This document shows positions 8,801-30,008 of a stretch of DNA of 64,000 nt, piece after piece (positions within the stretch are counted from its first letter, which is position 1; each line of letters starts with the position of its first letter). The DNA lies in the sequence record MT764208.1. One strand, 5' to 3'. Under the pieces are notes generated by a model. The model worked only from the letters and a program-made list of their open reading frames with translations, made no database searches and had not been told where the DNA came from. The DNA is from Escherichia phage JEP8. A program made the translations under genes and the position numbers.

Positions 8801-10387
8801 ATGAAAACTACCAAAGAACTGATGGAAAAATGGTCCCCGCTGCTGGAGAACGAAAAACTGCCGGAAATCGCAACTGCGTCTAAGCAGAAACTGGTTGCTA
8901 AAATTCTGGAATCTCAGGAAGCGGATTTTGCTGTAGACCCGATCTATAAGGATGAAAAAGTTGTTGAAGCATTCGGTGGCTTTATCGCAGAAGCCGAAGT
9001 TGCTGGCGACCACGGTTATGACGCATCTAATATCGCGGCTGGTCAGACTACCGGTGCAATCACCAACGTAGGTCCGGCTGTTATCGGTATGGTTCGCCGT
9101 GCTATCCCTAACCTGATTGCATTTGATATTTGTGGTGTTCAGCCGATGAGCACTCCGACTAGCCAGATCTTTGCAATCCGTTCTGTATACGGTGGCGATC
9201 CGCTGAAATCTGGTGCTCGCGAAGCATTCCATCCGATGTATGCACCTGATGCGTTCCATAGCTCTCTTGCTGCTAAAGAGGCAACTGTAGGTTCACCAAC
9301 TGGTACTGCATTCGCTAAACTAACTCTTTCCCAGGCTATCGCTGCTGGTGATATCGTATATCACACCTTCGCAGAAACTGGTATTGCTTATCTGCAAAAC
9401 GTAACTGGTGATTCTGTAACACCACAGAAAGTAGGTAGCGAATCCGAAGATGAAGTAGTAATGAAGCTGATTGAAGAAGGTAAATTGGCTGAAATCGCTT
9501 TCGGTATGGCTACTTCCATTGCCGAAATTCAGGAAGGCTTTAACGGTTCCAGCAATAACCCGTGGGCTGAAATGTCAATGCGTATTGACAAACAGGTTGT
9601 TGAAGCGAAATCTCGCCAACTGAAAGCCCGTTATTCTATCGAAGTTGCGCAGGATCTGCGTGCTGTACACGGTATGGATGCTGATGCCGAACTGAATGCT
9701 ATCCTGGCTAACGAAGTTCTGCTGGAAATCAACCGTGAAATCGTTGACGTTATCAACTTTACCGCTCAGGTTGGTAAAACTGGTATGACTCAGACCGTTG
9801 GTTCTAAAGCTGGTGTATTTGACCTGCAAGACCCGATCGATACTCGCGGTGCTCGTTGGGCTGGTGAATCCTTCAAATCTCTGATCTACCAGATCGACAA
9901 AGAAGCTGCTGAAATCGCTCGTCAGACTGGTCGCGGTGCGGGTAACTTTGTTATCGCTTCCCGTAACGTTGTAAACATTCTGGCTTCTGCTGATCAGGGT
10001 ATCAGTCTTGCTATGCAGGGTGCTGCAAAAGGTCTGAATACCGACACCACTAAAGCTGTTTTCGCTGGTGTTCTGGCTGGTAAGTACAAAGTGTTCATCG
10101 ACCAGTATGCTCGTCAAGACTACTTCACCGTAGGTTACAAAGGCGACAACGAAATGGATGCTGGTATCTACTATGCTCCGTATGTTGCTCTGACTCCGCT
10201 GCGTGCAACTGACCCGCAGTCTTTCCACCCGGTTCTGGGCTTCAAGACTCGCTATGGCATCGGCATTAACCCGTTTGCAGACAGCAAATCCCAGGCACCG
10301 TCCGCTCGCATCACCTCCGGTATGTTGAGCAAAGACAGCGTAGGTAAAAACGCATACTTCCGTCGTGTATGGGTTAAAGGTTGCTAA
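8801..10387 (+). CDS. 23: major capsid protein (gp23-like)
   Basis: 528 aa; near-colinear match to T4 gp23 (…MVRRAIPNLIAFDICGVQPM…YFTVGYKG…GKNAYFRRV…). Confidence 0.97.
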   Translation: MKTTKELMEKWSPLLENEKLPEIATASKQKLVAKILESQEADFAVDPIYKDEKVVEAFGGFIAEAEVAGDHGYDASNIAAGQTTGAITNVGPAVIGMVRRAIPNLIAFDICGVQPMSTPTSQIFAIRSVYGGDPLKSGAREAFHPMYAPDAFHSSLAAKEATVGSPTGTAFAKLTLSQAIAAGDIVYHTFAETGIAYLQNVTGDSVTPQKVGSESEDEVVMKLIEEGKLAEIAFGMATSIAEIQEGFNGSSNNPWAEMSMRIDKQVVEAKSRQLKARYSIEVAQDLRAVHGMDADAELNAILANEVLLEINREIVDVINFTAQVGKTGMTQTVGSKAGVFDLQDPIDTRGARWAGESFKSLIYQIDKEAAEIARQTGRGAGNFVIASRNVVNILASADQGISLAMQGAAKGLNTDTTKAVFAGVLAGKYKVFIDQYARQDYFTVGYKGDNEMDAGIYYAPYVALTPLRATDPQSFHPVLGFKTRYGIGINPFADSKSQAPSARITSGMLSKDSVGKNAYFRRVWVKGC

Positions 10388-22240: not shown

Positions 22241-22758
22241 TGACAGAAACTAAACCTATGTTAAAATTTGTTGTTCCTGTAAAAAAATTAGAGATAAACG
22301 GGAAACATATCAAGATCCCAAAAATGGGGATTAAGCAACATCGATTATTAAAAGATGTTCGTAGCTGTGATGAAACATTAAAGATTCTTCTTGATTCAAT
22401 CTGTCCTGGGTTAAACGCTGCCGAGTCTGAATTGGTTATGCTTAACCTTTGTGCGTTTAATGGTAAGTGTCTGGAAGAAAAAGATGGTCTTAAGCTGTCT
22501 GATGTGTATATTTGTACAGAGACTGAATTTACTTTAAATGGTAAAGTCTTTAAATTTAAAAATCCAATGTATACTTCTGACCCCATTATCGATGACGCTG
22601 ATTTCTTGAGTCATCATTATCACGATCCTAGTGTAGACTTCCATGATTTCCCAGCTTTTATTATGGATTGGGCTACAGGATTAAGAAAAACTATTGCACT
22701 TGATACACCGGAAGGTACTATCTATGGTGGAATTAACATATTGGATCGCCTATCATGA
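22240..22758 (+). CDS. 28: baseplate hub distal subunit (gp28-like)
   Basis: 172 aa; position between 27 and 29; start overlaps the gp27 stop. Confidence 0.8.
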   Translation: MTETKPMLKFVVPVKKLEINGKHIKIPKMGIKQHRLLKDVRSCDETLKILLDSICPGLNAAESELVMLNLCAFNGKCLEEKDGLKLSDVYICTETEFTLNGKVFKFKNPMYTSDPIIDDADFLSHHYHDPSVDFHDFPAFIMDWATGLRKTIALDTPEGTIYGGINILDRLS

Positions 22759-24488
22759 ATGACGCATTAACATCATTTCGCGGGATGCGCAAGGAAGCGG
22801 AAGAAAACCCGATTGATAAACTTAACAAGTTAGATAAACTTGATTCTATTGATAATCTGCAAGCCGCTACCGAATTGGTGGCGGAGACAGTAGAACAAAA
22901 ATCTAATGAAGTTGTTGGTGCGGTAGAGGATAACACCGCAGCCAATGAATTGACGGCAGAAAATACACAATCTACCGCTGGCAATACCCAAAAAACTTAT
23001 GAAGAATTGCAAAAACTCAATAATTTCTCTTCTCAGATGAATGAGAAATTACGTGGTTTTGGTGTTATGATGGAACGTAGATTTGGTGTTGTCAGTAAAA
23101 TGGCTAGCGGTATTGGTGCGATTGAAGAAGCACTGAAAAAACCGGAACAACCGCAAACAATGCCATCACCTCAGCCAGTTTTGCCTACTGTACCGGAACA
23201 GCCTAATAATGACAACTATCAAGGTCTTCCGAAGAAAAAACCAGATGTTGATGACCGAAAGAAAAAGAACGCCACAGATAAGCGTAATGCGGATTCTATG
23301 GAAAATCTTCTTAAAGTTGTTCGTGGAGGATTTAAAGAAACCATAGGTATCTCTAATAAGGTCTTAGGGATGTTATTTAAGATCACTTTGACCGCTATGG
23401 CAGAAGCCGCAAAATGGGGTGCTATTTTGATGGGTATTGTTTTTGTCATTGATACCCTGATGGTTCATTTCAGATATTGGAGCGATTTATTCGAGACAAA
23501 ATTCAGTGAATTTATGGATAAGGCCGGAGATTGGGCTGGTCCTATTAGCGATATTTTAACTACTGTTCGTCAGGTTAGAGATTATTGGTCTAAAGGAGAA
23601 TATAAAGAATTAATTAAATCGCTGGTTATGGGTATTGGTGATGCATTCTATAAAACCTTTATCCAACTTGATCGAATTATCACTACTGGTATTGCTAAAA
23701 TTCTTCGCATGATCCCTGGTATGGGTGATTATGCCGATAATTTAGAATACGGTGCTTTAAAGTCTGCTGTTGCTAAAGGCTATAAGCCAAATGACAGAGA
23801 ACTCGAATTAATGGATAAGATCGAGTCTGAACACGAAGAAGACAAATATGGAGAGCGCACAGGATGGACAGGAAAAGCCCGTGATATTGGCGAAGCTATT
23901 GGGGATTCTATTAAGGATAAAGTTAACGAAGGTCTTGTTAGTCTGGGCTGGAGAGATCAAAAGGATGTTGACGCAGAGAAACGACAAGAAGAATTAAAAC
24001 GCGGGGAATACAAGTCTGTTTCTGCTGAACAACGATCTGCTAGTCGTAAACTTAAAATTAAAAGCGAGGGAGCGATCAATAATATTAATGAAGTTATGGA
24101 GAATTTGAGCGGTGACTATGACAAAGAAAGAATGGAAGAGTTGAAAAAGGATATTGATGTTTACCGTGAGCAAGTTCAAGATCCTACATTAGTTGAAAGT
24201 GATCGTTCTCAGTTAGAGCGTCTTATTGAAAAATTTGATGAGATGTATGCTGATAAAACTAATGGTGTGGTTCCAACTAACCCTGTTCCTGCAACTGAAA
24301 CGGAAACAGCAAAACAAGCGGAACGTACTGAACAAATGCAGAAACAAGCTGCAATCCAGCAACAAACGACAAATCAGACCTCAAACGTAAATAATACACA
24401 AATTGTAACAAACAATAGAACTATTAAACAGGGTGCACCAACAACTAGAATTGATGCCCCTGGTACAATTAATATGGGGAACTTTTAA
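22755..24488 (+). CDS. 29: baseplate hub / tail length determinator (gp29-like)
   Basis: 577 aa, coiled-coil and Q/N-rich C-terminus; synteny. Confidence 0.85.
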   Translation: MNDALTSFRGMRKEAEENPIDKLNKLDKLDSIDNLQAATELVAETVEQKSNEVVGAVEDNTAANELTAENTQSTAGNTQKTYEELQKLNNFSSQMNEKLRGFGVMMERRFGVVSKMASGIGAIEEALKKPEQPQTMPSPQPVLPTVPEQPNNDNYQGLPKKKPDVDDRKKKNATDKRNADSMENLLKVVRGGFKETIGISNKVLGMLFKITLTAMAEAAKWGAILMGIVFVIDTLMVHFRYWSDLFETKFSEFMDKAGDWAGPISDILTTVRQVRDYWSKGEYKELIKSLVMGIGDAFYKTFIQLDRIITTGIAKILRMIPGMGDYADNLEYGALKSAVAKGYKPNDRELELMDKIESEHEEDKYGERTGWTGKARDIGEAIGDSIKDKVNEGLVSLGWRDQKDVDAEKRQEELKRGEYKSVSAEQRSASRKLKIKSEGAINNINEVMENLSGDYDKERMEELKKDIDVYREQVQDPTLVESDRSQLERLIEKFDEMYADKTNGVVPTNPVPATETETAKQAERTEQMQKQAAIQQQTTNQTSNVNNTQIVTNNRTIKQGAPTTRIDAPGTINMGNF

Positions 24489-25546
24489 TGAAAATTAGTG
24501 TTATCAATGATGCCGTTGATAGCTTTAAAGCGGGGGTTAAAACCTCCGCTGGTTTTACCTCAAAAAATAAAGGGAAAACATTAACCGCTCAATTCCCCGC
24601 TGAACGTGCTAGCGGTAATGATGCTAGCGGTTATTATATCAACGACTTATATAATAATGGTCTGTTATTCACTGCATACGATTATACATCTCGTACTACT
24701 GGATCGTTGCGTGATTTCAGGAAAAAGAAAAATGTTGCTAGCGGTTTTGGCGGTAGCGTTAATATCGCTGGTTTTGATTTAAATTTGGGAGGGAGAAATG
24801 CTGCATTTGACCGCGAGGCAATTGCTAATATTCTTCTTCCTCGTAGTCAATCTGACGTTGACGCTGCTAGCCATAAGTTTAATGATGTTGGTGAATCTGT
24901 CATTTCTCGCGGCGGTGGTACTTTAGGTGGTGCTCTTTCTAATATGGCATCTACTGCCGTTTTTGGTGGTATCGAAAGTATTACTGGTGGATACCTTGCC
25001 GATCACGGTGAACAGATTTATAATACTGCGCGAAGCATGTATGCTGGTGCTGACGCACGAACTAAAAACTACGTATGGCATCTAACCCCACGTAGTATTG
25101 AAGACCTTCGCAATATTCTGATCATATACGAAACGTTTTTAGAATTGTCTTATGGTTCTAGTGGTATTTCCAGCACAGCAAAAGAATTAAAAGCGGAAGT
25201 TGATGCGTGGTATAAAAATACACTATTGAGAAAATCCACTCCAGAGGAAGCGAAGAGAAATGATACTCTTTTTGAAGGGATCACCGATTTTCTATCAAAC
25301 GCAATTACTGTATCTAACCCGACAATATGGATGATCTCTAACTTTGGTAAGCGTACATCGTTTGAAGGGCGTAGCGATGCATTTGGTCCCGCTCAGATCT
25401 CAAGTGTACGTCTGGACAAGTCGCCTGATGGTAAGTTTAATGGCCTTGCTATTTCTCCTAACTTGCCTAGTACATTTGTTCTGGAAGTATCATTTAGAGA
25501 GATCTTGACACTTTCCCGTGGTACTATATTTGGGAGTGTGGTATAA
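24488..25546 (+). CDS. 48: baseplate tail tube cap (gp48-like)
   Basis: 352 aa; synteny between 29 and 54. Confidence 0.85.
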   Translation: MKISVINDAVDSFKAGVKTSAGFTSKNKGKTLTAQFPAERASGNDASGYYINDLYNNGLLFTAYDYTSRTTGSLRDFRKKKNVASGFGGSVNIAGFDLNLGGRNAAFDREAIANILLPRSQSDVDAASHKFNDVGESVISRGGGTLGGALSNMASTAVFGGIESITGGYLADHGEQIYNTARSMYAGADARTKNYVWHLTPRSIEDLRNILIIYETFLELSYGSSGISSTAKELKAEVDAWYKNTLLRKSTPEEAKRNDTLFEGITDFLSNAITVSNPTIWMISNFGKRTSFEGRSDAFGPAQISSVRLDKSPDGKFNGLAISPNLPSTFVLEVSFREILTLSRGTIFGSVV

Positions 25547-26478
25547 TGTTTGATTTAAATGATTTTAACGAACAAGCCGCTAACCTTGACTTTCAGCGAT
25601 CTAACTTATTCAGCGTGGCATTTGCCACCACTCCAAGTAATAAGACACAAGCGATCCTAGAAAGTATGGGCGGTGCGGTATATGATATTATACCAAATGC
25701 ATTAAATGACTATTTCGGGATTACTCGTGGTGATTATACTGACGCATTAACAAATCTTGCTGTACAGGGTGTTAGGCGTGCTGTTGATTCATCTGGTGTC
25801 AAAAAGTATCTTTTAGGTGCAATGTCATCCCGCGTAGTTCAATCTCTTCTGGGGCAATTTGATGTTGGTACATATGCGCTTGACTGGTTCAATATGGCAT
25901 ATAAGACAAGCGGTCTTCTGGTGTATGCTGTTAAGGTTCCAGAAAACAGATTGAATTATGAAATGGACCGTAACCACAATGCGCCAAACATTAGAATTAC
26001 CGGACGTGATTTCGATCCGCTTGTATTGAGCTTTAGAATGGACTCTAGCGCATCAAACTATCGAGCAATGCAGGATTGGGTTAACTCAGTAGAAGACCCC
26101 GTTACAGGGCTTCGTGCGCTTCCTGTTGACGTTGAAGCAGATATTCAGGTCAACTTACATAACCGAATGGGAGTTCCTCACACGATCATGATGTTTAATG
26201 GTTGTGTTCCTGTTGGTGTGAGTGCACCGGAATTAACCTATGAAAACAACAACGAAATTACAACATTCGATGTTACTTTCGCATATCGTTCTATGCAAAC
26301 TGGTGCTGTAGGAGAGCAAGCCGCGCGAGAATGGATTGAGGATAAGGCAATAAACGCAATAACAAACACTTTCGGCAATAATTTACTTGATAGTGGGTTA
26401 TCTGCTGCTGGTAATGCTTTATCGCGTCTAAATGGCGTTGGTGGGCGTGTGGTGAATACTGTCACTAACTGGTTCTGA
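25546..26478 (+). CDS. 54: baseplate tail tube initiator (gp54-like)
   Basis: 310 aa; N-terminus MFDLNDFNEQAANLDFQRSNLFSV… is paralogous to tail tube gp19. Confidence 0.85.
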   Translation: MFDLNDFNEQAANLDFQRSNLFSVAFATTPSNKTQAILESMGGAVYDIIPNALNDYFGITRGDYTDALTNLAVQGVRRAVDSSGVKKYLLGAMSSRVVQSLLGQFDVGTYALDWFNMAYKTSGLLVYAVKVPENRLNYEMDRNHNAPNIRITGRDFDPLVLSFRMDSSASNYRAMQDWVNSVEDPVTGLRALPVDVEADIQVNLHNRMGVPHTIMMFNGCVPVGVSAPELTYENNNEITTFDVTFAYRSMQTGAVGEQAAREWIEDKAINAITNTFGNNLLDSGLSAAGNALSRLNGVGGRVVNTVTNWF

Positions 26479-26484
26479 TAAGCG

Positions 26485-26518
26485 AAAGGCGGGGATTATC
26501 CCCCGCCTTTTTATTTTG
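26485..26518. terminator. bidirectional rho-independent terminator between gene 54 (+) and the lipoprotein gene (-)
   Basis: 10-bp stem AAAGGCGGGG/CCCCGCCTTT flanked by an A-run and TTTTATTTT. Confidence 0.75.
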
Positions 26519-26996
26519 CTAAATCATTGCAATATTTTAGTGCCTTAGTTTGAAATTCTGCGCTGTTAAGTTCTTCATAACGGTCATAATCACCGTTTAA
26601 TGCTGCCTTTCTTGCTTCTTGCTCTATCTGCATGTCAGACATGATAATACAGCGATCCCGCGCTTTCATCTTCTCAAGTTGTATAGACTCTTCTTTCTGC
26701 TTGCGCAATTCTTCTTGACGCTTCTTTTCTTCTTGTGCTTTCTCTTCCCGCGCTTCTTTGATTGCATCCTTGAACATCTGCGTTTGTGGTGCTAAACCAA
26801 CTTTAACGCGATCTACGTCTCGACGTTCCATTTTAGAAATAAAGCATGATTCGATCTGATCATCACTTGCATATGCTGCTTTACATTCACGAAGCAAGAA
26901 AACCGGATCTGATTTAGCATTCATCATAGCTTCCATGTTGGCACAACCAGTAAGCATGAATGCAGCCGCAAGACCAATCAGTTTAATCATTTTCAT
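26511..26996 (-). CDS. putative lipoprotein with coiled-coil region
   Basis: 161 aa; N-terminal signal peptide ending in lipobox LTGC (MKMIKLIGLAAAFMLTGC); K/E-rich helical middle. Confidence 0.55.
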   Translation of the reverse strand: MKMIKLIGLAAAFMLTGCANMEAMMNAKSDPVFLLRECKAAYASDDQIESCFISKMERRDVDRVKVGLAPQTQMFKDAIKEAREEKAQEEKKRQEELRKQKEESIQLEKMKARDRCIIMSDMQIEQEARKAALNGDYDRYEELNSAEFQTKALKYCNDLAK

Positions 26997-27817
26997 TTAG
27001 TCACCTCACCGAAAATTGTAAATTGTCTACGATTCTCATCACCGAAAGATTCTACTACGTCGTTTACCTTGACGCAAGTCCCGCGCGGTAAAATTACTTC
27101 ACATTCGCAAGGATTCCATGCAATTGACCCAACAACAAAACCTTTATGATCTTTTACGTCAATTACCCACGATACATTACAAGAATGTTGCATCTTTCCG
27201 GTCATGGATTCATATCGATTCTCACAATAAAGGCTAGTGCTGTTTGATAGCCAGCCTCCAAAGATGATCGGTGTCATGCTGGTTGACACAAAGTTTTTAA
27301 AGGTAAATTCCTTATCTTCAATAATACGCTCTATTGTCTGAATGTCAAGATGTTGACCGCGATAAAGAGTACCGTTTAACTTTTCGGTTTTATCCATGAC
27401 GCAATCCATCAAATCAACAATCTCTGATATCTCATCGGTCATGTCTTCTTCCCCTAAGAGAGCACCATTTACCCATTCGTATTGTTCAGACACATAATCA
27501 CAGATTGCATTATATTCTGCTGGGGTTATGTTGTTATGTTTGTAATGTTTGAATACATTATCTCCAAAGTCTTCGGAGTGTACTTCATACATCACATTAA
27601 TGATTTTCTTGACAAATCCATAATCTTGTGTCTCACGCTCAAGGAAGCGGATAACCTTCACATAATCATCAAAGTTAATCTGATCGCTAATCATCTCAGT
27701 GATCATGTAACCATTAATCCCCTCGATGTCATATGTTTCGATGTAATTATCCATACGTTCCATCATTGATTCGCGTGATTCTTCTGAAAGACGAAAATCC
27801 TGTAATTGTTTGAACAT
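26993..27817 (-). CDS. ADP-ribosyltransferase, Alt/Mod-family paralog
   Basis: 274 aa; R-S-E triad context …GTLYRGQ…FKNFVSTS…ECEVILPRG… parallels the catalytic region of the adjacent Alt (…ILYRGM…FKNYVSTS…ECEILLPRG…). Confidence 0.75.
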   Translation of the reverse strand: MFKQLQDFRLSEESRESMMERMDNYIETYDIEGINGYMITEMISDQINFDDYVKVIRFLERETQDYGFVKKIINVMYEVHSEDFGDNVFKHYKHNNITPAEYNAICDYVSEQYEWVNGALLGEEDMTDEISEIVDLMDCVMDKTEKLNGTLYRGQHLDIQTIERIIEDKEFTFKNFVSTSMTPIIFGGWLSNSTSLYCENRYESMTGKMQHSCNVSWVIDVKDHKGFVVGSIAWNPCECEVILPRGTCVKVNDVVESFGDENRRQFTIFGEVTK

Positions 27818-27849
27818 TTTAAACCTACCATATAACAGAAAACGGGGCT

Positions 27850-27878
27850 AGTATAAAACTAGTCCCCGTTTGAGTCAA
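27850..27878 (-). promoter_or_regulatory. sigma70-type promoter (TTGACT-N17-TATACT) within a stem-loop, upstream of the ART paralog
   Basis: read on minus strand; overlaps inverted repeat ACGGGGCTAGT…ACTAGTCCCCGT; approximate. Confidence 0.45.
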
Positions 27879-27894
27879 CCATTATTTCTTAAAA

Positions 27895-29946
27895 TTACAT
27901 TTTAAATTTATCTGGCATTGCGTCTACAGATACCAGATCAGCGATAAGCTGACGTAGAGTTGCCTTATCTGCTTTCTTACGTTCGGTTTTAGCTTCGCTA
28001 ATGAAGCTGGAGAAAGACAGGTCAGAAGCAGGTTTAATAACACCTTCACGGATGAATGCATCACCGTCTGCGATCATCTCGCCAGATTCTTGTAATGCTG
28101 CCAGTTCATTTTTGTTCATAATATGTGCCTCAATGTAATAAGTTTCTTGTGAATCCGTCGATGCCGTAGCACGAGTTACCGTATCAAAGGATAACACAAC
28201 ACCGCGAGGAAGTAAAATCTCGCATTCTTTGTAAGCAAATGCTTTGTTACCTACTGGCAATACAGGGATGTTTTCCGCGCCAGCAATGGAGAAAGCAACA
28301 TTAGCGCCACCTTCACCGCGAGAGCCAGCCATAGAATCTACACCAGCAACGGCACTAGCCACGTTTGCATTCCAGCCGCCAAAAATGTTAGGTGCAAGGG
28401 AAGTGCTCACATAGTTTTTAAAGTAAAACGCTTTTTGCTTACGTGCAGTTTCCCACATTTGCGACCGGAAGTCCATACCACGATACAGAATAGTACCAGG
28501 ATCAAGTTTAACACCATAGTTAGAGAAGGCATTATCCAGTGCATCGCACATCTTGACCAATTCTTCTGGATCTGCGATTCCCTCAAACTCTTCCAGCTTA
28601 CGATCAGTTAGGAAGTTGTTCATATTGATGTATGCTGCATCGGCATATTCGCTCAACACAAAACCTTCCGCGCCCGGCAGATCAAGATCAATATCTGCCA
28701 TCATTTCACCCATGTTGCTAGCAATTGCTTCAAACATACCGGACGCAACATTACGAAGGGCATCGGTTTTAATCTGGGTGATATGACTACGCAGCATTTC
28801 AGCTTTTACATCTGCTGGCATAGACTGGTCTACTCGATCCATTGCCAGGGCGGTGATCTTGTTTTCAAATACTTCCTCGCTCATGATTTCTTTTAAGCGT
28901 TTGATTGATGCTGCGATAACTTCCGCAGACAACGGATCATATTGATCCTGAACTTTTACCAGTTCGCTTACTGCGTATTTTGCATCGGCTTCGCTTTCAA
29001 AAATAGTACGCATGAAACCATAGCGAGTGATAATATCACTTGTCCAGTCATTCAGAGAACGGGCGGTTGAACGTTCTAAGGCTTGACGGTCAATCAGAGT
29101 ATTAAACTGTTTCTTAGGTTCTGCTTCGGTGATATCTTCTTCCGGTTTAAGATTAATTTTTTCTGGATGATTCACGTAGTCGCTGTTATAGGTCGCTTGA
29201 GTTTTCAGCATTTCTTCTTTAGTCAAACGAGATTTAGCCGCTACGCGTTGTTCTGCTTCCGCGTTTCGTTCTTCTTCTGACACAAGACTAGCCGCATACG
29301 CCTCATCTTTAGTCAGAGATTCACCAGTAGCCTTAGATACCCAGCGATCACCTAAATCACTTTCTACTTTAGTGAACAAGGATTCATCAAGTTTAATCCC
29401 TTTAATCTTATCAATCGCCATCCCGCGACGCTTGACAACAACTAAAGCGATCTTTTTGCTGGTCATTACTTCCTGCTGGAATACTTCAAACTTCGGTGTA
29501 CGACGCACCAAACGCTCTATAACGCGCTTAACCAGTTCGGTCTTACCTTTCATGCGGGATACGTTAAAACGGAACATAACAGCGTCTAATTGCGCTTTAC
29601 GGGCTGTTTCCATAACCACATCAAAAGCACTTGCCATAACTGCAATCGGGTTATCGCCTAGACCATTTTTAAGCTGTACAATACGACCGCTTTTGTTCAT
29701 TTCGCACAGTACAACATGTGCGGTTTTGTCACCCATACGAATGATTTTAGGTGTTTTGTTGGTGAAGTTACAAAGACGGACAATCACATCTTTATCGCGT
29801 GTCTGTACTGCAAAAAGCTGTTTAGGATTCTGCTTAGGCTTTAAGCACTGTACCGGAGCAATACTGCCAAAGTTTTCTTCCTCTTCCGTCAACAGCCATT
29901 TCTCGAAAGATTCAATCATTAGATCGTCGATTTCTAAGTTAAACAT
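27895..29946 (-). CDS. alt: Alt ADP-ribosyltransferase (packaged RNAP-modifying enzyme)
   Basis: 683 aa (T4 Alt is 682 aa); conserved ART motifs; located after gene 54 as in T4. Confidence 0.9.
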   Translation of the reverse strand: MFNLEIDDLMIESFEKWLLTEEEENFGSIAPVQCLKPKQNPKQLFAVQTRDKDVIVRLCNFTNKTPKIIRMGDKTAHVVLCEMNKSGRIVQLKNGLGDNPIAVMASAFDVVMETARKAQLDAVMFRFNVSRMKGKTELVKRVIERLVRRTPKFEVFQQEVMTSKKIALVVVKRRGMAIDKIKGIKLDESLFTKVESDLGDRWVSKATGESLTKDEAYAASLVSEEERNAEAEQRVAAKSRLTKEEMLKTQATYNSDYVNHPEKINLKPEEDITEAEPKKQFNTLIDRQALERSTARSLNDWTSDIITRYGFMRTIFESEADAKYAVSELVKVQDQYDPLSAEVIAASIKRLKEIMSEEVFENKITALAMDRVDQSMPADVKAEMLRSHITQIKTDALRNVASGMFEAIASNMGEMMADIDLDLPGAEGFVLSEYADAAYINMNNFLTDRKLEEFEGIADPEELVKMCDALDNAFSNYGVKLDPGTILYRGMDFRSQMWETARKQKAFYFKNYVSTSLAPNIFGGWNANVASAVAGVDSMAGSRGEGGANVAFSIAGAENIPVLPVGNKAFAYKECEILLPRGVVLSFDTVTRATASTDSQETYYIEAHIMNKNELAALQESGEMIADGDAFIREGVIKPASDLSFSSFISEAKTERKKADKATLRQLIADLVSVDAMPDKFKM

Positions 29947-29986
29947 TTTATATCCTCTAGTTGATAACCTATAAACCTATATTTAT

Positions 29987-30008
29987 GAAAAAGGGGCTTA
30001 ACGCCCCC
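29987..30008 (-). terminator. rho-independent terminator (minus strand)
   Basis: GGGGC-ttaac-GCCCC with plus-side A-run; the same hairpin recurs at about 34028-34048. Confidence 0.5.

Follow-up and report, generated by a model that had tools for sequence, protein, structure and literature searches.

Phage T4 makes two kinds of ADP-ribosyltransferase (ART), namely, Alt, the packaged RNA polymerase ADP-ribosyltransferase, and ModA and ModB, which are early, non-packaged enzymes. For RB49, Nolan et al. (2006) listed the gene RB49ORF183c as a paralogous duplication of alt, beside T4 alt.-1/alt.-2 and 44RRORF188c (PMC1524935). A GenBank note has described RB49ORF183c since 2003 as "similar to C-terminal part of T4 Alt protein," and RefSeq names the product "ADP-ribosyltransferase." The product of the next gene, RB49ORF182c, is called a "putative lipoprotein" in phage W115 and likewise a lipoprotein in UniProt. 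A literature search on the function of either gene found nothing beyond Nolan et al. 2006. With GenBank entries for both genes dating from 2003 and the ART paralogue in print since 2006, the recovery of the two genes in another genome carries little weight as a discovery; the pair is real, but it is largely ordinary and previously annotated.

The window analyzed here, a stretch of 64,000 nucleotides from Escherichia phage JEP8 (sequence record MT764208.1), belongs to the genus Krischvirus (RB49/Phi1-like) and shares 98.5 to 99% identity with RB49, Phi1, GEC-3S, and ELT3. The three open reading frames of a first-pass annotation, encoding Alt (683 aa), a short ART (sART; 274 aa), and a predicted lipoprotein (161 aa), are all present (Table 1), and the 4-nt overlap it reported is an ATGA in which the lipoprotein ATG lies over the sART stop codon. 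The sART and lipoprotein genes occupy the space between alt and the converging baseplate gene 54 (gp54). Their counterparts in RB49 (RB49ORF183c and RB49ORF182c), Phi1, and GEC-3S are the same genes, with 98 to 100% protein identity and the same order, overlap, promoter, and terminator; we see no substantive difference from these phages, and the window represents a further isolate of the same phage genus. Both genes are kept in 58 GenBank Krischvirus genomes. The alt-sART-lipoprotein trio also occurs in metagenomic relatives at 44 to 46% identity, and sART and the lipoprotein gene are adjacent in all lineages examined (the window, L009, L015, and L017). We interpret the locus, with a probability of about 0.72, as a two-gene early Krischvirus operon that encodes an old Alt paralogue and an envelope lipoprotein that is not its partner.

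Table 1. Genes and signals of the alt-sART-lipoprotein locus in the window
Feature	Coordinates	Strand	Description	Basis
alt	27895..29946	-	Full-length Alt-type ADP-ribosyltransferase, 683 aa	ORF; PHROG 802, E = 1.5e-179; PF03496
sART	26993..27817	-	Short Alt-like ADP-ribosyltransferase, 274 aa; RB49ORF183c orthologue	PHROG 15144, 274/274, E = 4e-198
Lipoprotein gene	26511..26996	-	161 aa; RB49ORF182c orthologue	PHROG 16112, function unknown
ATGA overlap	26993-26996	-	Lipoprotein ATG over sART stop codon	
Lipoprotein signal peptide and lipobox	26943-26996	-	Codons 1-18	
Exchangeable cassette	26528..26963	-	Mature domain of the lipoprotein	blastn breakpoints and alignment
Predicted sigma-70 early promoter of sART	27850..27878	-	G-TTGACT, 17 nt, TATACT; A-rich stretch upstream	10/12 consensus positions
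Probable intrinsic terminator of alt	27835..27869	-	Hairpin ACGGGG-A-CUAG ... CUAG-CCCCGU, then UUUUCU	
Signals upstream of alt	29980..30008	-	Terminator 29992-30008, then late-promoter-like CATAAATA at 29987..29980	
Terminator hairpin between converging gp54 and the sART-lipoprotein operon	26484..26511	.	11 pairs, 7 G-C	Found on + strand

The motifs previously noted in sART (GTLYRGQ, FKNFVSTS, and CECEVILPRG) are found as described, and the neighboring Alt carries ILYRGM, FKNYVSTS, and KECEILLPRG. Together they supply the catalytic residues in the right order, R153 (LYRG), S178-T179-S180, and E238-C-E240 (E238-x-E240), and R153, STS178-180, and E238/E240 are invariant among 10 aligned homologues, including Alt. 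All of the catalytic residues hold down to 44% identity. Both ARTs exceed the 23.4-bit cutoff of PF03496 (ADPrib_exo_Tox), sART with 59.3 bits over residues 82 to 266 and Alt with 37.3 bits. A Foldseek search with the AlphaFold2 model of sART (pLDDT 82, pTM 0.81) matched C3bot2, Certhrax, CDTa, iota Ia, and Vis with E values of 2.6e-11 to 4e-9 and probability 1.00, and the modeled fold is that of a C3/VIP2-type R-S-E ADP-ribosyltransferase. The C3-like and binary-toxin ARTs (C3bot, iota Ia, CDTa, C2-I, Certhrax, and Vis) thus have the fold and the catalytic motif in common with sART, but identity is only 13 to 20%, and sART is a phage cytoplasmic enzyme without a secretion or translocation component. 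No signal peptide or export signal was found in its sequence. The dN/dS of sART is 0.01 to 0.06, equal to or below that of alt itself, and the gene is under strong purifying selection.

Membership of sART in the Alt family is supported by BLASTP against T4 Alt (31.5% identity over 181 aa, 87.8 bits, E = 9e-23). The match to the resident neighbor Alt scores 66.6 bits (36.7% identity over 109 aa), and the resident Alt itself aligns to T4 Alt with 26.6% identity over 695 aa (E = 1e-60). An ART-domain phylogeny, which had been proposed as a check, placed the sART proteins in a clade of their own in 170 of 200 bootstrap replicates and as sister to the resident Alt in none of the 200. This neighbor-joining tree was built on 175 columns of very divergent sequences, and its deep branching is unreliable; it indicates that sART is no recent copy and leaves the source of sART unplaced. 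When 1.84 billion representative proteins were searched exhaustively, the short type was represented by only three full-length clusters (271 to 282 aa) and one 76-aa fragment, compared with dozens of Alt proteins of 600 to 712 aa. The first-pass annotation had suggested either a local duplication or an acquired ART. Its duplication reading holds as far as sART is an Alt paralogue, whereas a recent tandem copy is rejected by the BLAST scores, the tree, and the dN/dS values; sART is an old, independently maintained member of the family.

Duplicates of alt directly downstream of alt are also seen elsewhere, and they raise the alternative that sART arose recently by local duplication or is a functionless remnant in decay. 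In T4, the record notes and BLAST of alt.-1 and alt.-2 against Alt identify broken remnants at the same position, and on Tequatrovirus-like contigs (L012) the second alt is split into two open reading frames. The T4 copies, however, are N-terminal pieces only, and the Tequatrovirus-like copy is full length but divided into 273 and 415 aa, whereas the Krischvirus copy is the catalytic half alone, in one intact, selected gene. The low dN/dS and the catalytic residues that persist to 44% identity speak against decay, as do the conserved promoter that sART has for itself, its 36.7% identity to the neighboring Alt, and its failure ever to group with that neighbor. We consider the remnant explanation hardly credible and regard sART as a strongly selected, separately regulated Alt-family member and not as debris of a recent duplication.

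On the Alt profile (PHROG 802), sART spans positions 330 to 602. All that remains is the central helical part together with the catalytic domain; the N-terminal ∼330 aa are missing, and so is the conserved C-terminal tail (∼80 aa; ..MPDKFKM) that full-length and split Alts have in common. A full T4 Alt-type architecture (∼680 aa) was rejected for sART on these two missing regions. In line with this division, the neighboring Alts bear PF26846 (Tevenvirinae_ADPRT region), while the short ARTs have PF03496 only. T4 Alt has the homologous R/STS/ExE catalytic domain with the preceding helical region and occupies the same place between genes 30 and 54. It differs from sART in that sART belongs to a separate clade and has a predicted sigma-70 early promoter in place of the late-type signal found upstream of alt.

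Orthology with the Mod enzymes was also rejected. BLASTP gave no hit below E = 0.6 between sART and T4 ModA, T4 ModB, or RB49 ModB, and sART is not an ordinary ModA/ModB orthologue that has changed its place, because RB49 has a modB-like gene (RB49p014, 167 aa) after srd, at the site syntenic with srd-modA-modB of T4. A Mod profile run against the whole RB49 genome matched only this modB-like ORF; the ART set of the complete genome consists of exactly Alt, sART, and one ModB-like gene. These three Krischvirus ARTs offer a natural comparison for the T4-type division of labor between injected and newly made ADP-ribosyltransferases. T4 ModA and ModB resemble sART in small size, R-S-E type, presumed early synthesis from a host-type promoter, and intracellular action, but they share no significant sequence similarity with it and occupy a different genome position.

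The promoter attributed to sART is borne out by a TTGACT-17-TATACT element, and the same promoter is annotated in GEC-3S. Its hexamers and spacing persist across five lineages with only 44 to 48% identity between their proteins, and its −35 GTTGAC matches the early-promoter preference reported for RB49 (PMC1524935). The stem-loop noted at the same place was likewise recovered (27842-27869 plus a T-run; fold of −22.1 kcal/mol, z = −2.75), and its loop and 3′ arm hold the −10 hexamer (27855..27850). The hairpin, like the promoter, persists in all five lineages; in relatives the stem is retained via two-sided changes (CUAG/CUAG versus ACAG/CUGU), and CCCCGTTTTCT is invariant. The hairpin is probably the intrinsic terminator of alt. 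Host sigma-70 RNA polymerase would transcribe the operon from a promoter whose −10 box lies inside this hairpin, so that alt transcripts would stop there while new ones begin within it. The predicted start of the early transcript is near 27843, just past the −10 hexamer. Placing a promoter within a terminator hairpin in this way would give the phage a neat, conserved means of switching between late alt and the early operon.

Upstream of alt, the GEC-3S annotation gives a terminator only, and no sigma-70 promoter is annotated there or was found by our scan. The CATAAATA element at this site is a candidate late promoter, judged by the T4/RB49 late consensus (PMC1524935). No late promoter (TATAAATA or WATAAATA) was found on the minus strand near sART or the lipoprotein gene. 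The consensus promoter and its conservation suggest that the operon is expressed early. At the far end, the hairpin between the converging genes is annotated on both strands in GEC-3S and conserved in L009; its position and the GEC-3S record suggest that it works on the minus strand as well. A promoter-like site inside the sART gene (27348..27321, 11/12 consensus) was taken as chance because neither L009 nor L015 conserves it.

These signals also bear on whether sART is packaged and injected like Alt, as a second virion-borne enzyme. The T4 prohead protease cuts a short Leu/Ile-x-Glu motif, and residues 10 to 12 of sART (L-S-E) would fit it; sART belongs to the Alt family, and some read-through from the late alt transcript is possible. 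The N-terminal L/I-x-E triplet, however, is not conserved in register among the homologues, and residues 12 to 28 form a confident helix that belongs to the fold in the AlphaFold2 model. No late motif accompanies the gene's strong, conserved sigma-70 promoter, and a terminator lies between alt and sART. The protein is also shorter than Alt by the first ∼330 aa and the conserved tail at the C terminus, regions whose role in packaging we presume. Packaging of sART thus appears quite unlikely, and the enzyme is probably absent from the capsid.

We propose instead that sART is produced in the cell soon after infection and not brought in with the capsid, a deployment that would resemble that of T4 ModA and ModB. 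It would use NAD+ to mono-ADP-ribosylate arginines of host proteins; an early, non-packaged arginine ADP-ribosyltransferase is the most likely identity of sART. With a single Mod gene in this phage type, sART may stand in for the missing ModA.

The lipoprotein begins with MKMIKLIGLAAAFMLTGC followed by A, which confirms the lipobox LTGC read by the first-pass annotation, with a positive n-region, a hydrophobic core, L-T-G-C, and Ala at +2. The signal fits substrates of signal peptidase II (MKMIKLIGLAAAFM-LTGC against the lipobox [LVI][ASTVI][GAS]C). All 10 diverse members compared have the lipobox Cys, and 7 of them fit the strict consensus, with LNGC in two type-B members and LFGC in L015. 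The +2 residue is Ala or Ser in every member. Under the E. coli +2 rule, lipoproteins without Asp at +2 are sorted to the outer membrane, which predicts this destination here, and the protein is probably anchored in the outer membrane. The mature part has 143 residues and four Cys (38, 51, 116, and 156) that are invariant in the 10 diverse members. In the AlphaFold2 model (pLDDT 88), residues 72 to 133 form one continuous 62-residue helix. The proposed coiled-coil domain is accordingly half right: the long helix is there, but its core (residues 78 to 112) consists of 60% Glu/Arg/Lys with only five large hydrophobic residues, a composition closer to that of a charged single helix than to that of a classical heptad coiled coil. 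The model suggests two helical ends, probably disulfide-stapled (predicted pairs C38-C51 and C116-C156) and joined by the long charged helix.

In a profile search across 5.8 billion proteins, the lipoprotein turned up on Krischvirus-like phage contigs only, with no homologue outside phages, and no relative was found in the PDB, BFVD, NCBIfam, or PADLOC. It is not a conserved T4 alt-adjacent gene. T4 Alt.-3 (DUF5498) lacks a signal peptide and does not resemble the lipoprotein: BLASTP gave no hit at E ≤ 10, and tblastn of Alt.-3 against the RB49 genome gave none below E = 1; DUF5498 is located instead in the Tequatrovirus-like locus. The T4 exclusion proteins gave no convincing counterpart either. 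Alignment of the lipoprotein profile with mature Spackle (Sp) by hhalign had a probability of 0.04, and the best tblastn match of Sp in the RB49 genome (E = 0.049) mapped inside gene 41. T4 Imm had no tblastn hit in the RB49 genome, a search too insensitive to prove Imm- or Sp-like functions absent. Outer-membrane spanins are short, proline-rich lipoproteins encoded within or beside an i-spanin gene, and unimolecular spanins are lipoproteins that end in a transmembrane helix; for the Krischvirus protein, a spanin identity was rejected on the polar C terminus (..KALKYCNDLAK), the helical 143-aa mature part, and the neighbors, an ART gene and gene 54.

The mature domain of the lipoprotein is a freely swapped, polymorphic cassette. 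In phage E26, the cassette is a version without detectable DNA similarity, while the flanks on its two sides retain 99.2% and 98.7% identity. Among GenBank records, type A is found in 50 and type B in 8, with 27 to 30% identity between these two types and 27 to 34% between lipoprotein types overall. In phage Whisky, sART is 100% identical while the lipoprotein is about 32 to 34% identical in alignments (28.7% in the tblastn local alignment). An association of the lipoprotein type with the adjacent baseplate/tail-tube module was hinted at by Whisky, in which the divergence runs past the lipoprotein gene into gp54, gp48, and gp29, and was ruled out by E26, PHB13, 011D4, and G37-3, which combine a type-B lipoprotein with gp54 and gp29 that are 98.7 to 99.5% and 96 to 98% identical, respectively, to those of the window. 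An association with the gp38 adhesin type, as receptor masking would suggest, was not supported, as RB49-type gp38 occurs with type A (RB49, Phi1, and ELT3) and with type B (Whisky, AV108, and PTE-Eco09). The cassette thus varies independently of sART, gp54, gp29, and gp38.

This independence argues against a role of the lipoprotein as a partner of the ART, which the first-pass annotation had considered possible. ART toxins are often accompanied by immunity proteins, one Foldseek match of sART was to an ART-ARH toxin-immunity pair (8za7), and the 4-nt overlap and the adjacency in the window, L009, L015, and L017 would suit a functional pair, whether toxin and immunity protein or enzyme and cofactor. 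Nevertheless, the lipoprotein has no resemblance to ADP-ribosylhydrolases or known immunity proteins, and a divergent mature domain stands beside an identical ART in Whisky and beside 99% identical flanking DNA in E26. The two proteins would also reside in different compartments, because the ART has no signal peptide and only the lipoprotein is exported. A functional pair is therefore very improbable. The lipoprotein would be translationally coupled to sART via the ATGA overlap without being the partner of the enzyme, and it would most likely act early in infection at the envelope of the cell, for instance by excluding superinfecting phage. A role in superinfection exclusion or elsewhere at the envelope is only a guess.

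Other small phage lipoproteins that act at the envelope include T5 Llp, T1/phi80 Cor, and the all-helical TP-J34 Ltp. Homology of the Krischvirus lipoprotein to these is confined to the signal peptide, and it is larger than they are, with 143 mature residues, four Cys, and the long charged helix. A function like that of Llp or Cor, in which the lipoprotein would mask the phage's own outer-membrane receptor and shield infected cells and progeny, would suit a lytic phage's lipoprotein that is encoded in an early operon and probably sits in the outer membrane, and it would agree with the allelic polymorphism typical of genes at the phage-envelope interface. A weak hit to PHROG 1119 (Cor, E = 0.0074) points the same way, but it is not significant and covers residues 1 to 45 only, essentially the signal peptide. 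The lipoprotein type is moreover decoupled from the gp38 type, and the protein has no structural relative, and we regard receptor masking as rather unlikely.

Sharply different, exchangeable alleles such as those of this phage-only lipoprotein usually mark genes of cell-surface competition. A bolder reading, tentative and on balance doubtful, is that the lipoprotein is an unrecognized, polymorphic Krischvirus factor for exclusion or envelope protection and that sART has a host target unlike those of Alt and ModB. If so, an early lipoprotein anchored in the outer membrane would have a disulfide-stapled head that a rigid, charged helix positions ∼9 nm deep in the periplasm. The function of the Imm/Spackle system, apparently missing in Krischviruses, would be taken over by this protein, and its ancient allelic types (27 to 34% identical and swapped as cassettes) would give different specificities.

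The minus strand of the window carries alt, a 274-aa ADP-ribosyltransferase gene (short ART) and a 161-aa lipoprotein gene, which converge with the plus-strand genes gp29, gp48 and gp54. The arrangement described in the first-pass annotation is present in full: the short ART lies directly downstream of alt and encodes the motifs LYRGQ, FKNFVSTS and ECEVILPRG, and the lipoprotein ORF follows with a 4-nt overlap (ATGA). The 3.8 kb around the locus is 98.5 to 99.0% identical to 58 GenBank Krischvirus phages, including RB49, Phi1, JSE, GEC-3S, and ELT3. The RB49 record of 2003 lists RB49ORF183c (274 aa), noted as "similar to C-terminal part of T4 Alt protein," and RB49ORF182c (161 aa), labelled "hypothetical." RefSeq names the former "ADP-ribosyltransferase"; the latter is a "putative lipoprotein" in phage W115 and, for the KFS-EC copy, a "Lipoprotein" in UniProt. 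The corresponding PHROGs families are 15144 (ADP-ribosyltransferase) and 16112 (unknown function). Nolan et al. 2006 (PMC1524935) attributed RB49ORF183c, 44RRORF188c, and T4 alt.-1/alt.-2 to paralogous duplication of the alt gene next to them, and a note in the T4 record describes alt.-1 and alt.-2 as remnants from duplicating the first part of alt. Because of these annotations and that publication, the second Alt-like ART downstream of alt is not new, and the residual novelty is confined to the polymorphic orphan lipoprotein. We found no paper on the function of either gene.

Features of the alt locus and the converging baseplate genes (window positions)
Feature	Position	Strand	Remarks
gp29	22755-24488	plus	baseplate gene
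gp48	24488-25546	plus	baseplate gene
gp54	25546-26478	plus	baseplate gene
Terminator hairpin	26484-26511		common to both converging gene sets
Lipoprotein	26511-26996	minus	161 aa, six-frame ORF list
ATGA	26993-26996		lipoprotein ATG overlapping short ART stop codon
Short ART	26993-27817	minus	274 aa, six-frame ORF list
Near-consensus sigma-70 site	27321-27348	minus	inside short ART coding sequence
alt	27895-29946	minus	683 aa, six-frame ORF list
Terminator, then late-promoter-like CATAAATA	29980-30008	minus	upstream of alt

The short ART is an Alt-like protein, as first proposed. It matches T4 Alt (BLASTP, 31.5% identity over 181 aa, E = 9e-23, 87.8 bits) and its own neighbouring Alt (36.7% over 109 aa, E = 1e-15, 66.6 bits), and scores 59.3 bits against Pfam PF03496 (ADPrib_exo_Tox; cut-off, 23.4), for which Alt scores 37.3 bits. 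It is not a Mod protein: BLASTP gave no significant match to T4 ModA, T4 ModB, or the RB49 ModB-like protein, and the modB-like gene of RB49 (RB49p014, 167 aa, 8917-9420 of the RB49 locus L008) occupies the T4-syntenic site after srd. A search of every stop-to-stop segment of the complete RB49 genome (OZ035808.1) with an Alt-domain profile and a Mod profile identified alt and the short ART as the only two Alt-type genes and the modB-like gene as the only Mod gene, with no ModA in the whole genome. RB49 therefore possesses three ARTs, the same number as T4 but not the same set.

An exhaustive phmmer search over 1.84 billion representative proteins returned 87 matches, among which the short type is represented by only 3 full-length clusters (271 to 282 aa) and one 76-aa fragment; nearly all others are Alt proteins of 600 to 712 aa. 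A neighbour-joining analysis of catalytic domains (56 sequences, 175 columns), whose deep branching is unreliable at such divergence, placed the short ARTs together in a single clade in 170 of 200 bootstraps and with Krischvirus Alt proteins in none. The tree excludes the suggestion that the gene is a recent local copy of alt. Within the genus, the short ART is under very strong purifying selection (dN/dS of 0.01 to 0.06, versus 0.02 to 0.11 for alt). The short ART-lipoprotein gene pair is old: in relatives from two further lineages (L009 and L015; 44 to 46% identical), the whole set of alt, short ART, lipoprotein, and converging gp54 is retained.

Residues R153, S178-T179-S180, and E238/E240 are invariant in homologues down to 44% identity. 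The AlphaFold2 model (pLDDT, 82; pTM, 0.81) matches C3bot2, Certhrax, CDTa, iota Ia, C2-I, and Vis at a probability of 1.00. The short ART aligns with positions 330 to 602 of the 674-position Alt profile but lacks the C-terminal ~80 residues (ending ..MPDKFKM) that are common to Alt and split Alt proteins. Most likely, it is synthesized early, stays out of the capsid, and mono-ADP-ribosylates host proteins specifically at arginine. It would be analogous to ModA and ModB in deployment but is a member of the Alt family by descent.

The promoter and stem-loop previously assigned to the short ART are both found in the 77-nt spacer that separates it from alt. The minus strand reads ...AAGAAATAATG-GTTGACT-17 nt-TATACT..., and the hairpin is ACGGGG(A)CUAG-UUUUAUA-CUAGCCCCGU, followed by UUUUCU, with the -10 hexamer within its loop and 3' arm. 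Both promoter hexamers (with TTGACT or TTGACA at -35), their 17-nt spacing, and the CCCCGTTTTCT run are conserved in four further lineages (L017, L009, L015, and L016, the last three with proteins only 44 to 48% identical to those of the window). The stem is preserved across substitutions in both of its arms (CUAG/CUAG versus ACAG/CUGU). Upstream of alt, the CATAAATA element is close to the late-promoter consensus, and neither a promoter scan nor the GEC-3S annotation places a sigma-70 site there. In GEC-3S, an early promoter of its own is annotated for each of the small ORFs lying beyond. Neither TATAAATA nor AATAAATA was found near the short ART on its strand. The simplest reading, with timing taken from sequence, is that alt would be transcribed late, with its transcripts terminating at the hairpin, and that the short ART and the lipoprotein would form an early operon beginning within that hairpin. 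A near-consensus sigma-70 site within the short ART coding sequence (TTGACA-16-TATTAT, 11/12 consensus) might in theory drive transcription of the lipoprotein gene by itself, but its lack of conservation in L009 and L015 makes a chance occurrence probable.

The lipoprotein begins with a textbook lipoprotein signal (MKMIKLIGLAAAFMLTGC, followed by A). All 10 diverse members compared share the lipobox cysteine and carry Ala or Ser at +2; besides the lipobox residue, each has four cysteines and no more, of which the last two are invariably separated by 40 residues. The AlphaFold2 prediction (pLDDT, 88) is all-helical, comprising two short helices around C38 and C51, one continuous helix of 62 residues (72 to 133) with C116 near its end, and two short C-terminal helices, with C156 in the last. 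A coiled-coil domain had been proposed; the long continuous helix is indeed predicted, but its core is 60% Glu/Arg/Lys, a composition more in keeping with a charged single helix than with a heptad coiled coil. When 5.8 billion proteins were searched twice, the second time with a mature-domain profile, all matches came from phage-sized Krischvirus-type contigs (up to 171 kb). The lipoprotein is not a T4 gene. The PHROG Cor match is weak and confined to the signal peptide, and hhalign against T4 Spackle was empty.

A tblastn search of GenBank found the window's lipoprotein version at 95% identity or more in 50 genomes; in 8 others, the same place is taken by a version only 27 to 30% identical (type B). 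DNA of phage E26 is 99.2% identical to the window down to 26964 and 98.7% identical from 26527 onwards, and between these points no similarity is detectable, so that the exchange covers precisely the mature domain. The E26 type-B ORF (MN655998.1, L014 2501-3013; 170 aa) is intact and unannotated in its record. In Whisky and JK32 the divergence runs on into gp54, gp48, and gp29, but a tie between lipoprotein type and these genes is broken in E26, PHB13, 011D4, and G37-3, where type B accompanies gp54 and gp29 that are 98.7 to 99.5% and 96 to 98% identical to those of the window. Nor is lipoprotein type tied to the type of gp38 adhesin. The lipoprotein had been considered a possible partner of the ART. 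In Whisky, the ART and the signal peptide are 100% identical and identical, respectively, while the mature lipoprotein is only ~32 to 34% identical; an unchanged ART beside a replaced neighbour, and the different cellular compartments of the two products, argue against such a partnership, and the two probably do not act as a pair.

The circumstantial evidence points to an early envelope function, such as superinfection exclusion, as the most likely role of the lipoprotein, because it lies in the putative early operon, has a predicted outer-membrane destination, and shows a balanced, cassette-like polymorphism, and because T4 Imm and Spackle have no detectable counterpart in RB49 (tblastn of the whole genome gave no convincing homologue of either). 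The signal peptide of T4 Spackle (L018 1745-2038) itself includes an L-A-S-C stretch consistent with a lipobox.

Four Krischviruses (Whisky, JK32, AV108, and PTE-Eco09) carry a divergent baseplate-hub/tail-tube module relative to window 22755-26478, adjoined by alt and short ART genes that are ~98% identical. Their gp54 is 83 to 87% identical, and gp29, annotated as two ORFs in Whisky, is alignable only over its first 27%; the gp54-gp48 stretch is 78 to 81% identical in the aligned Whisky and JK32 loci. A Tequatrovirus-like metagenomic contig (L012 4183-6248) carries a complete second alt in two parts, an N-terminal ORF of 273 aa and a catalytic one of 415 aa, after which comes a DUF5498 gene (T4 Alt.-3 homologue); T4 alt.-1/alt.-2 look like a decayed form of this arrangement. 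In another metagenomic T4-like contig (L011 2366-4386), an Alt-like gene split into 356-aa and 316-aa ORFs directly follows a gp48-like gene on the same strand, with no gp54-like gene called between them, and converges on a DNA ligase cluster. In KMB43 (OR525698.1), the match to the 933-bp gp54 query is broken into two pieces that together span 1310 bp, suggestive of a ~380-bp insertion, and the alt region of Sf20 (MF327006.1) spans 3877 bp against 3801 bp in the window, ~76 bp extra.
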